Below, piece by piece: positions 5,901 through 8,900 of a DNA stretch of 64,000 bases. Location: NCBI RefSeq assembly GCF_056746865.1, contig NZ_CM163382.1; one strand, 5' to 3'. The position numbers were made by a program. The number at the start of each line of letters is the position of its first letter. Within the stretch, counting starts at the first letter, position 1.

Positions 5901-8900
5901 TGTTTAAGCCCCTCATCACGCAGTGCTTCCGTCAGTTCAGCAGCAAAGGCGTAGATGATCATCTGCTGGGCATCTTGCTGATTGATCCCGCGCGAGCGCA
6001 GATAAAACATCTGTTCGTCATCAATACGCCCCACCGTCGCGCCGTGGCTGCATTTCACATCATCTGCATAGATTTCCAGCTGTGGTTTCGTATCCACTTC
6101 CGCCAGTTTGCCCATCAGCAGATTATTGTTGGTCATCTGACCATCCGTTTTGATGGCGTGCTGCGCGACGTTGATCAAACCGTTAAATACCGCGCGGCCT
6201 TTGTCGCTGACGATAGTTTTGTGCAACTGTCGGCTGTTACAAAAACCTTTATTGTGTTCCAGCCAGGTACGGGTATCACACACCTCGTTTTTCACCGGCA
6301 TCGCCAGGCTATTGATCCGCAGCGTGCTGTTTTCGCCATTGAGTTGCGAACTGGTGTTGTGTCGTAACACTGCGCCACCCAGCAGGTAACTGTGGCTAAA
6401 TGCGGTGGCATCGTCTGCCAGCAACAAATCGTTATGGGCAAAGTGGTGACTGAGCGGGTTTTCAAACGCCAGCTTGATATGCTGCAAGTGGGCGTTCGCT
6501 GCGACATTGATAGTGAACCGTGCCCCAGTAAAATGACGAGCATCATTAAGGCTGACAAAATGTTCGATCACCGTTGCTTCGGCACCTTCCGCCAGATCCA
6601 GATGATGTCGGTAATGGGCAGTGTTCACCTCTTCACCTGCCACGCCCTGGGTTATATGCATTAACAGCAATGGCTTTACCGGCCGTTGACCGCGCTTCAC
6701 GGCGATATGCGTCACGCTATGCGCCAGGCTTTCCGTCAAATGCAGAAACACTTCCGCCTGAATAGCGTCGGGTAACCCCTGGCGGTCATCGTTAATGCTC
6801 ACTTCATATCCGCTGCCTTCAGTTGCATCGCTCAGTGCTGACACGTAACGTCCATCGACAAATACCAGCCGCACAGCGTCTAACGTTAACGCTAAGGCAT
6901 CTCGCTGCTGTGGGGATATCTCTCCCGCAATGCAGACAAACTGGCTATTGGTCAGCCCTTCCAGCGGCGTATATTTCCAGTTTTCATGTTTCCGTGTCGG
7001 CAGTCCGGTACGCAGCAATTGTTGTAAATGCTGCTGTGCTTGCGGGGAGCGTTTTGCACCCTCGGCTTCAAACAAGTGATGCCACTGTTGCAGCGCGTTA
7101 CTGCTGTTCGGTAAGCCAGCCATAACCCTGCTCCTCCAGTTGTTTGACCAACGTGAAATCGCCGGATTTCACAATTCGTCCCTGATACAGCACATGGACG
7201 TAATCAGGCTTGATGTAGTCGAGAATGCGTTGGTAGTGCGTAACAATGATGAATGAACGCTTGCCGTCACGCAGCGAGTTCACGCCATCGGCAACCACTT
7301 TTAATGCGTCAATATCCAGCCCGGAGTCCGACTCATCAAGAATACATAACTCCGGTTCCAGCACCGCCATTTGCAAAATATCGTTGCGCTTTTTCTCGCC
7401 GCCGGAAAAACCAACGTTTACCGAACGGGTTAATAAATCTTCCGGCATCTTCAGGAGAGCGATTTTCTCTTCCATCAAATCCTGAAAATCAAAGCGGTCG
7501 AGCGTTTCCTGGCCGCGATAGCTGCGCACCGCATTAAGTGCCGTTTGCAGGAAAAACTGGTTACTGACGCCGGGAATTTCCACCGGATACTGGAAGGCCA
7601 TAAAGATGCCTTCACCTGCACGATCTTCCGGCGACAGCGCAAGCAAATCTTTGCCTTTGAACTCAACCGCGCCGCCCGTCACTTCATAATCTTCTCGCCC
7701 GGCAAGCGTTGCCGATAAGGTACTTTTGCCCGAACCGTTTGGCCCCATAATGGCGTGAACTTCGCCGGGACGAACGTCGAGGCTTAATCCACGCAGGATA
7801 GCTTTATCTTCCACGCTGACGTGTAAATCTTTAATACTTAACATGTTTATTCCTTATCCGACGCTGTGTTCAAGACTGATGGCGAGGAGTTTTTGTGCTT
7901 CAACGGCAAATTCCAGCGGCAGTTCTGAGAACACGTCTTTGCAGAAACCGTTAACAATCATCGAGATGGCATCTTCTTCGCTGATCCCGCGTTGCAGGCA
8001 GTAAAACAGTTGATCTTCACCAATACGTGATGTTGTTGCCTCGTGCTCCAGTTGTGCGCTGTTATTGCGACATTCGACATACGGGAAGGTATGCGCCCCA
8101 CAATTAGCGCCAATCAGCATTGAGTCGCACTGAGTGAAATTGCGCGCATTGGTTGCCGTCGGCATGATTTTCACTAAGCCGCGATAACTGTTCTGACTAT
8201 GTCCGGCAGAGATCCCTTTCGAGATAATGGTCGATTTAGTGTTTTTACCGATGTGGATCATCTTGGTGCCGGTATCCGCTTGCTGATGACCGCTGGTCAG
8301 CGCCACTGAGTAAAACTCACCAATGGAGTTATCGCCGCGCAAAATACAGCTGGGATATTTCCACGTAATCGCTGACCCGGTTTCTGATTGCGTCCATGAC
8401 ATTTTGCTGTTTTCGCCTTCGCACAAAGCACGCTTGGTGACGAAGTTGAGAATACCGCCGGTGTTGTTATCGCCAGGGAACCAGTTTTGTACCGTGGAAT
8501 ATTTCACCTCGGCGTTTTTATGGATGATGACTTCCACCACCGCCGCGTGTAACTGATAGCTGTCACGCACCGGAGCGGAACAGCCTTCAATGTAGCTGAC
8601 GTAGCTGTCTTCGTCGGCCACCAGAATGGTGCGCTCAAACTGCCCGGTTTTTTCCGCGTTAATGCGAAAATAGGTGGAAAGTTCCATCGGGCAGCGCACG
8701 CCTTTAGGCACATAAATAAACGTACCGTCAGAGGCTACCGCCGCATTAAGTGCGGCAAAGAAGTTGTCATTCCCCGGCACCACGGTGCCGAGATATTTAC
8801 GCACCAGTTCCGGGTGATCGTGGATCGCCTCGCCAAAGGAACAGAAAATAATTCCCTGCTCCGCCAGTTTTTCGCGATAAGTGGTGGCAACCGAAACAGA

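Follow-up and report, generated by a model that had tools for sequence, protein, structure and literature searches.

Gene overlaps in the suf–ydi–btu region of Escherichia coli: four stop/start junctions and a long sufC/sufD overlap with a probable initiation site of its own

Five adjacent gene pairs overlap in the 64-kb segment of the E. coli chromosome analysed here (hereafter, the window), and we consider it probable that they fall into two mechanistic classes. At four junctions, where stop and start codons overlap, the downstream gene would be reached by termination and reinitiation, while sufD, which overlaps sufC by 26 nt, would be translated by de novo initiation.

Overlapping gene pairs in the window

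The window spans, in brief, pykF–suf–ydi–btu–pheST–thrS–katE, with the gene order fumD–pykF–lpp–ldtE–sufEDSCBA–ydiH–menI–ydiJ … btuCED–ihfA–pheTS–rplT–rpmI–infC–thrS–espL1 … katE–chbG. When a 10-kb query taken from it was compared with 5,426 complete E. coli genomes, 5,412 of them matched along 80% or more of the query length. Strain 118UI is 99.99% identical to the window except that the window has a 1,199-bp IS5 element inserted in ydiM. Gene coordinates were taken from an open reading frame (ORF) listing and from a RefSeq annotation, that of a genome 99.99% identical to this DNA, transferred to window positions; all transferred CDSs gave a clean translation, the sole exception being the interrupted ydiM. 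The suf operon order sufA-B-C-D-S-E is given both by the RefSeq names on the 99.99%-identical DNA and by the K-12 reference.

Among the 43 same-strand adjacent gene pairs of the window, only five overlap. On the minus strand, sufC (7098-7844) and sufD (5852-7123) share 26 nt (7098-7123) in both the ORF listing and the RefSeq mapping; sufD and sufS (4635-5855) share 4 nt as ATGA (5852..5855, d = -4); ydiJ (10962-14018) and menI (10555-10965) likewise share an ATGA (10962..10965, 4 nt, d = -4); and btuE (40091-40642) and btuD (39342-40091) share 1 nt within a TAATG junction (40089..40093, d = -1). On the plus strand, ydiS (27928-29217) and ydiT (29214-29507) overlap by the 4 nt of an ATGA (29214..29217, d = -4). 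The overlap sizes in the original prediction (26, 4, 4, 4 and 1 nt) were thus exact: ORF coordinates, mapped RefSeq annotation and the curated K-12 MG1655 record, which contains the identical five overlaps, all agree. These overlaps are ordinary, already annotated intra-operon architecture of well-described categories, and the discovery value is small, since they are present in every E. coli annotation. Only two facts are mildly new: the sufC/sufD overlap is frozen throughout the order, and the ydiJ–menI junction is conserved.

Consensus scans for promoter-like or terminator-like sites found none at any of the five junctions, although such scans are weak and their total counts did not exceed shuffle expectations. 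An Rfam search returned neither family matches at the junctions nor any frameshift element. A literature search for coupling experiments on these five gene pairs found nothing direct, so coupling at all five, as distinct from the coordinates, motifs, conservation and synonymous-site constraint observed here, is what we infer.

Junctions where a stop codon overlaps a start codon

Coupling at -4 and -1 junctions is textbook knowledge. Across bacterial and archaeal genomes, no other spacings are as strongly enriched as these two (review PMC12548453); four of the window's overlaps thus belong to the kind one would expect, and the -26 overlap is the unusual one. The NTGA or TRATG form of stop/start overlap is present at sufD/sufS, ydiJ/menI and ydiS/ydiT (ATGA) and at btuE/btuD (TAATG), but not at sufC/sufD. 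In mRNA-normalised reporter assays of native E. coli ATGA pairs (hyfHI, astDB, ydbH/ynbE, menDH and bioBF), four of the five were coupled and bioBF was uncoupled (Huber et al. 2019, PMC6728339). The ATGA geometry and a Shine-Dalgarno (SD) sequence within the upstream gene are common to these pairs and to sufD/sufS, ydiJ/menI and ydiS/ydiT, whereas btuE/btuD has the sister -1 geometry. The pairs of the window also differ in that their SD sequences range from very strong (sufS) to none (btuD), and in that their coupling is read from geometry. Because four of five native ATGA pairs proved to be coupled, coupling is a sensible prior for each -4/-1 junction of the window, and by our estimate quite a likely one. 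The case of bioBF demonstrates that membership in the ATGA class is no guarantee of such behaviour, and an overlap by itself is no proof of coupling.

We therefore suppose, from geometry and motifs, that a ribosome terminating on sufD, ydiJ, ydiS or btuE would restart at the adjacent AUG of sufS, menI, ydiT or btuD, respectively. At the -4 junctions, the restart would be aided by an SD sequence lying inside the upstream gene, strong for sufS and moderate for ydiT and menI, while btuD would have no such aid. The sufS SD, CAGGAGGTG (5860..5868, minus strand), lies within the 3' end of sufD with a spacer of 4 and a predicted duplex energy of -11.6 kcal/mol; in our comparison of SD strengths, where it was graded strong, the motif is listed as CAGGAGGUG with the same duplex energy. 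The ydiT SD, AAGGGAGC (29197..29204, plus strand), is located within the 3' end of ydiS with a spacer of 9 and is of moderate strength (-7.6 kcal/mol). The menI SD, GGAGA (10973..10977, minus strand), is likewise moderate (-6.4 kcal/mol) and is formed by the ydiJ codons for the conserved C-terminal …LLEII. No recognisable SD was found upstream of btuD, where the best duplex reached only -1.9 kcal/mol, and btuD should therefore rely most on hand-over from btuE translation. It is also important to note that btuD has in-frame candidates for an alternative start codon, a GTG at codon 4 and an ATG at codon 5, and that initiation at the latter could abolish the btuE/btuD overlap altogether. Local RNA structure was not significant at any of the four -4/-1 junctions, with z from -1.0 to +2.2.

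A paralogous oxidoreductase/ferredoxin pair, fixC/fixX of the K-12 fixABCX operon, matches ydiS/ydiT both in gene order and in its 4-nt ATGA overlap, although it occupies a separate locus.

The overlaps of the window might alternatively be by-products of genome compaction and of the drift of starts and stops, with each gene translated from an independent ribosome-binding site (RBS) and no coupling of relevance. An ATGA arises easily (review PMC12548453), because the start codon supplies three of its four bases. Moreover, sufD, sufS, ydiT and menI have SD sites of their own, the menI RBS is predicted to be open, and bioBF offers a precedent. The spacing of ydiJ/menI and of sufD/sufS also drifts among species between -4, -1 and positive gaps. 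Against this, sufD/sufS stands at -4 in 34 loci and at -1 in 7, together 41, out of about 70 taken from diverse bacteria, and 12 of 14 ydiJ/menI loci keep one of these two spacings. Keeping in mind as well that btuD lacks any SD, that four of the five assayed native pairs were coupled and that the sufC/sufD overlap is frozen across the whole order, we think it unlikely that the overlaps are mere by-products, and termination–reinitiation remains our preferred reading of the four junctions.

For anyone who engineers or mutates these operons, a premature stop or an insertion in sufD, ydiJ, ydiS or btuE is likely to have a polar effect on translation of the gene that follows, and btuD, having no SD, is probably the gene most dependent on its upstream neighbour.

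The 26-nt overlap of sufC and sufD

In the sufC/sufD overlap (7098..7123, minus strand), both reading frames are coding. The minus strand reads ATGGCTGGCTTACCGAACAGCAGTAA at 7098-7123, from the sufD ATG (7123-7121) to the TAA stop of sufC (7100-7098), so that sufD starts 23 nt upstream of the sufC stop codon. Upstream of this ATG, the Leu-Glu-Glu codons of sufC form an SD sequence, GGAGGAG (7131..7137, minus strand; duplex -9.3 kcal/mol), whose GGAGGA core is placed 8 nt upstream of the ATG, the full GGAGGAG ending 7 nt from it.

We compared 80 sufC loci, taking one genome per species. In all 35 Enterobacterales loci, from Escherichia to Photorhabdus and Arsenophonus, the sufD ATG is found exactly at -26, with a GGAGGA-type SD at a constant distance. 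Two Vibrio species keep the ATG as well, at -26 and -23, together with the GGAGGA motif, and in a reduced-genome Pantoea symbiont it is located at -17; outside the Enterobacterales/Vibrio clade, the spacing is -4, -1 or a short gap. In the 35-species alignment, TATGGCTGGCTTA is invariant, and 13 nucleotides of the overlap do not vary. At third codon positions of sufC, entropy drops from 1.01 bits upstream to 0 within the four codons that open the overlap. The two SD-forming Glu codons of sufC are GAG in 35 and 31 of the 35 species, respectively, even though GAA is synonymous. Indels just 3' of the sufC stop are multiples of three, and the sufD ATG and the N-terminus MAGL(P) are invariant. Because the ATG, the SD and both protein sequences are conserved and synonymous variation is suppressed, the overlap is, on this comparative evidence, a genuine and old dual-coding segment, the SD of which is maintained by selection.

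Such a pattern leaves very little room for an annotation artefact, in which translation of sufD would really start past the sufC stop. E. coli does have an in-frame TTG at sufD codon 17, 22 nt past that stop, but this codon has no SD and is not conserved, while in at least 10 species the overlap ATG is the sole in-frame ATG, GTG or TTG between the upstream stop and +90 nt. Both the K-12 reference and every solved SufD structure have the 423-aa form, and our translation matches PDB chains 2ZU0/5AWF over the full length 1-423 (about 96% identity, E = 7e-279). With the -26 ATG and MAGL(P) invariant, the ATG the only candidate in many species and both frames under constraint, we dismissed a misannotated start as very improbable. 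Programmed frameshifting that would produce a SufC–SufD fusion protein was likewise rejected, and we regard its chances as next to nil. Both frames are indeed open across the 26 nt, but passing from the sufC frame to that of sufD requires a +1 shift, and the overlap (GGC UGG CUU ACC GAA CAG CAG UAA) contains no slippery or hungry-codon motif. The Rfam search matched no frameshift element here either, and the solved complexes contain SufC and SufD as distinct chains.

Published measurements on overlap length are instructive for the question of how sufD is translated. By the definition of Tian & Salis (2015, PMC4538824), sufC/sufD lies at d = -26. In their synthetic bicistrons, the reinitiation coefficient k was 0.022 at -4 and 0.0072 from 0 to +25, falling by 0.0004 per nt beyond -10; no coupling was seen in synthetic constructs at d = -25, and overlaps of at least 25 nt were recommended to prevent reinitiation (PMC4538824; both points summarised in review PMC12548453). 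Extrapolation to -26 gives a k of about 0.0008, roughly 4% of the -4 value, as derived from synthetic reporters designed without an SD. With reinitiation predicted to be near zero at -25/-26, de novo initiation of sufD on an SD of its own, the strong and maintained GGAGGA 8 nt 5' of the ATG, is the most likely route. Direct reinitiation at this junction would then amount to only a few percent of the level at a -4 junction, leaving ribosome-assisted unfolding as the one way to couple the two genes. Ribosomes ending sufC would help sufD only indirectly, by melting local structure over its RBS, and on steric grounds they may also block that site transiently. The constructs of Tian & Salis, however, had weak ribosome-binding sites and were unstructured, whereas the SD of sufD is strong and conserved, and in E. 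coli its RBS would be covered by a predicted hairpin of -22 kcal/mol. Such an SD could hold a post-termination ribosome and permit some back-scanning over the 23 nt.

The hairpin (7084..7140, minus strand) pairs the sufD SD and AUG with the region of the sufC stop codon, and in its 120-nt E. coli context the junction is more stably folded than its shuffled controls (z = -2.87). This arrangement recalls the RNA-unfolding model (Brown & Wade 2025, PMC12548453): the predicted partner of the SD and AUG is sequence at and just past the sufC stop, and a ribosome finishing sufC would melt the pairing. The sufD RBS is predicted to take 16.0 kcal/mol to open, where the median gene start of the window takes 8.4; over 37 species the median is 13.4, the cost being moderately high in most of them though achieved via different folds. 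The likeness to the model ends there, as the pairing lacks covariation support and its stability does not exceed that of average suf coding sequence. In the covariation test, 73.2% of cells were paired versus 70.8% in shuffles, and double-change pairs were no more frequent than in shuffles. The RNAalifold consensus at the junction reached only -5.9 kcal/mol, with just a 6-bp local stem kept. The suf coding background has a median opening cost of 12.7 kcal/mol, and 18% of its windows reach at least 16, so the sufD value falls within it. A conserved regulatory hairpin was thus rejected in spite of the significant-looking E. coli fold, and since it failed both the covariation test and the coding-background control, we keep the hairpin only as a weak contributor.

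The SufB1C2D1 complex requires SufC and SufD at 2:1. According to a Salmonella ribosome-profiling preprint, it is mainly translation that sets the SufB:C:D stoichiometry, which implies that sufC and sufD are not simply translated 1:1. The preprint's finding fits a tuned and unequal output, not a 1:1 hand-over.

This bears directly on the possibility that all five junctions, sufC/sufD included, are tightly coupled by one and the same ribosome that terminates and reinitiates. The five co-directional pairs with no promoter- or terminator-like site between their genes, the canonical -4/-1 geometry of four of them and the conservation of the -26 geometry would all agree with it, and a post-termination ribosome might in principle be kept on the mRNA by the strong SD that precedes sufD. 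However, reinitiation extrapolated to -26 is only about 4% of that at -4, synthetic constructs showed no coupling at -25, SufC and SufD are needed at 2:1 with their synthesis reportedly tuned translationally, and even among native -4 pairs one of the five was uncoupled. A single mechanism for all five junctions thus seems to us quite unlikely, and by our analysis sufC/sufD is the junction least expected to work by simple ribosome hand-over. The original prediction, which took the overlaps as a sign of coupled translation, can therefore be followed in part: coupling is a reasonable default at the four -4/-1 junctions, given the four of five native ATGA pairs coupled elsewhere, but as a simple hand-over it is doubtful at the very junction that was highlighted, sufC/sufD at -26, where reinitiation is predicted to be near zero and sufD has a strong SD of its own.

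Returning to de novo initiation of sufD, it is tempting to go one step further and suppose that the frozen 26-nt overlap may act as a ratio-setting device that holds SufD at a fixed fraction of SufC. Because the sufD RBS lies under the last 40 nt of sufC, ribosomes translating sufC would by turns expose it, through the melting of structure, and block it. If true, SufD would stay matched to the SufB1C2D1 complex over the large induction range of the operon. We give this idea, taken jointly with the metabolic reading of ydiJ–menI set out below, a rather low probability. Irrespective of it, edits to the last nine sufC codons also alter the SufD N-terminus and its RBS, and nature offers in the conserved -26 overlap a convenient case on which to study how long overlaps behave when the SD is strong.

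The pairing of ydiJ and menI

The original prediction had singled out ydiJ–menI as the functionally least expected coupling, as it links a large FAD/Fe-S oxidoreductase with a thioesterase of the menaquinone pathway. The remark is fair; nonetheless, the pairing is conserved across five enterobacterial families. We surveyed the flanks of those fetched sufC loci that reach this junction, and menI directly follows ydiJ in 14 loci from Enterobacteriaceae, Erwiniaceae, Yersiniaceae, Pectobacteriaceae and Morganellaceae, while three Pantoea loci contain ydiJ and no menI in the fetched stretch. The spacing in the 14 loci is -4 in seven (two of them with GTGA), -1 in five, and +14 and +51 in two Yersinia. 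Being conserved across the order, the junction is neither accidental nor a quirk of E. coli. In the window, the menI RBS is predicted to be very open, with an opening cost of 3.8 kcal/mol.

According to PMC9504171, YdiJ is a D-2-hydroxyglutarate dehydrogenase for which no physiological electron acceptor is known; that paper does not mention menI, operons or quinones. The tight, order-wide ydiJ–menI junction may mean that the dehydrogenase and the menaquinone pathway are genuinely linked in metabolism, a suggestion that is independent of the ratio-setting idea for SufC and SufD but shares with it the single low estimate given above. We would thus treat the conserved pairing of ydiJ and menI as a small lead on the electron acceptor of YdiJ, not as an explanation.

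Junction between ydiJ and menI

A short way upstream of the suf operon lies the ydiJ–menI pair (10555-14018, minus strand). Its junction, with stop/start overlap spacing of the -4/-1 type, is kept in five enterobacterial families, as seen in the window and in 12 of 14 sufC loci (one genome per species; L003-L037) where menI directly follows ydiJ. It is conceivable that YdiJ might be tied to menaquinone metabolism.

Start codons and tight junctions

The fadK gene (plus strand) starts at 29510 according to the curated MG1655 record of K-12, giving a protein of 566 aa and a start 2 nt past the ydiT stop, versus 29564 according to PGAP, giving 548 aa and a start 56 nt past the same stop. 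If the K-12 start is correct, ydiT–fadK represents a further tight junction, missing from the five overlaps of the original prediction. Read from its longest ORF (508 aa), with a 5' extension at 9342-9380 (minus strand), sufB would share 31 nt with sufA, whereas both RefSeq and K-12 place the start at the ATG at 9341, leaving 495 aa and an 8-nt gap to sufA. The mechanical ORF list makes sufB too long.

In the case of btuD (start region 40089-40110, minus strand), no Shine-Dalgarno sequence was found upstream of the annotated ATG. This start is only putative, the N-terminus MSIVMQ... containing in-frame GTG and ATG as codons 4 and 5.

At the thrS/infC junction (47024-47032, minus strand), infC starts 3 nt past the thrS stop, at an ATT codon preceded by a strong GGAGGA site; the ATT of infC is a known unusual start codon. 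Similarly tight is pheT/ihfA, with a gap of 4 nt.

The espL1 gene (49481-51379, plus strand), coding for a type III effector homologue, adjoins thrS and is intact (632 aa).

RNA elements and an IS5 insertion

None of the four Rfam matches in the window falls at an overlap junction. These are the rydB sRNA between sufA and ydiH (10040-10100, minus strand), RprA (15705-15812, plus strand), STnc540 (41686-41844, minus strand), which overlaps both the 3' end of ihfA and the sequence upstream of btuC, and the Phe leader (45540-45664, minus strand).

The MFS transporter gene ydiM is split by an IS5 element (17155-18348; transposase ORF 17186-18202, plus strand), an insertion of 1,199 bp with the target duplication counted. 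It is absent from K-12 and from E. coli 118UI, which is elsewhere 99.99% identical to the window. Among 5,426 complete E. coli genomes, only about 10 carry an element of the IS5 family within ydiM or close to it, including GMM076, which is collinear with the window.
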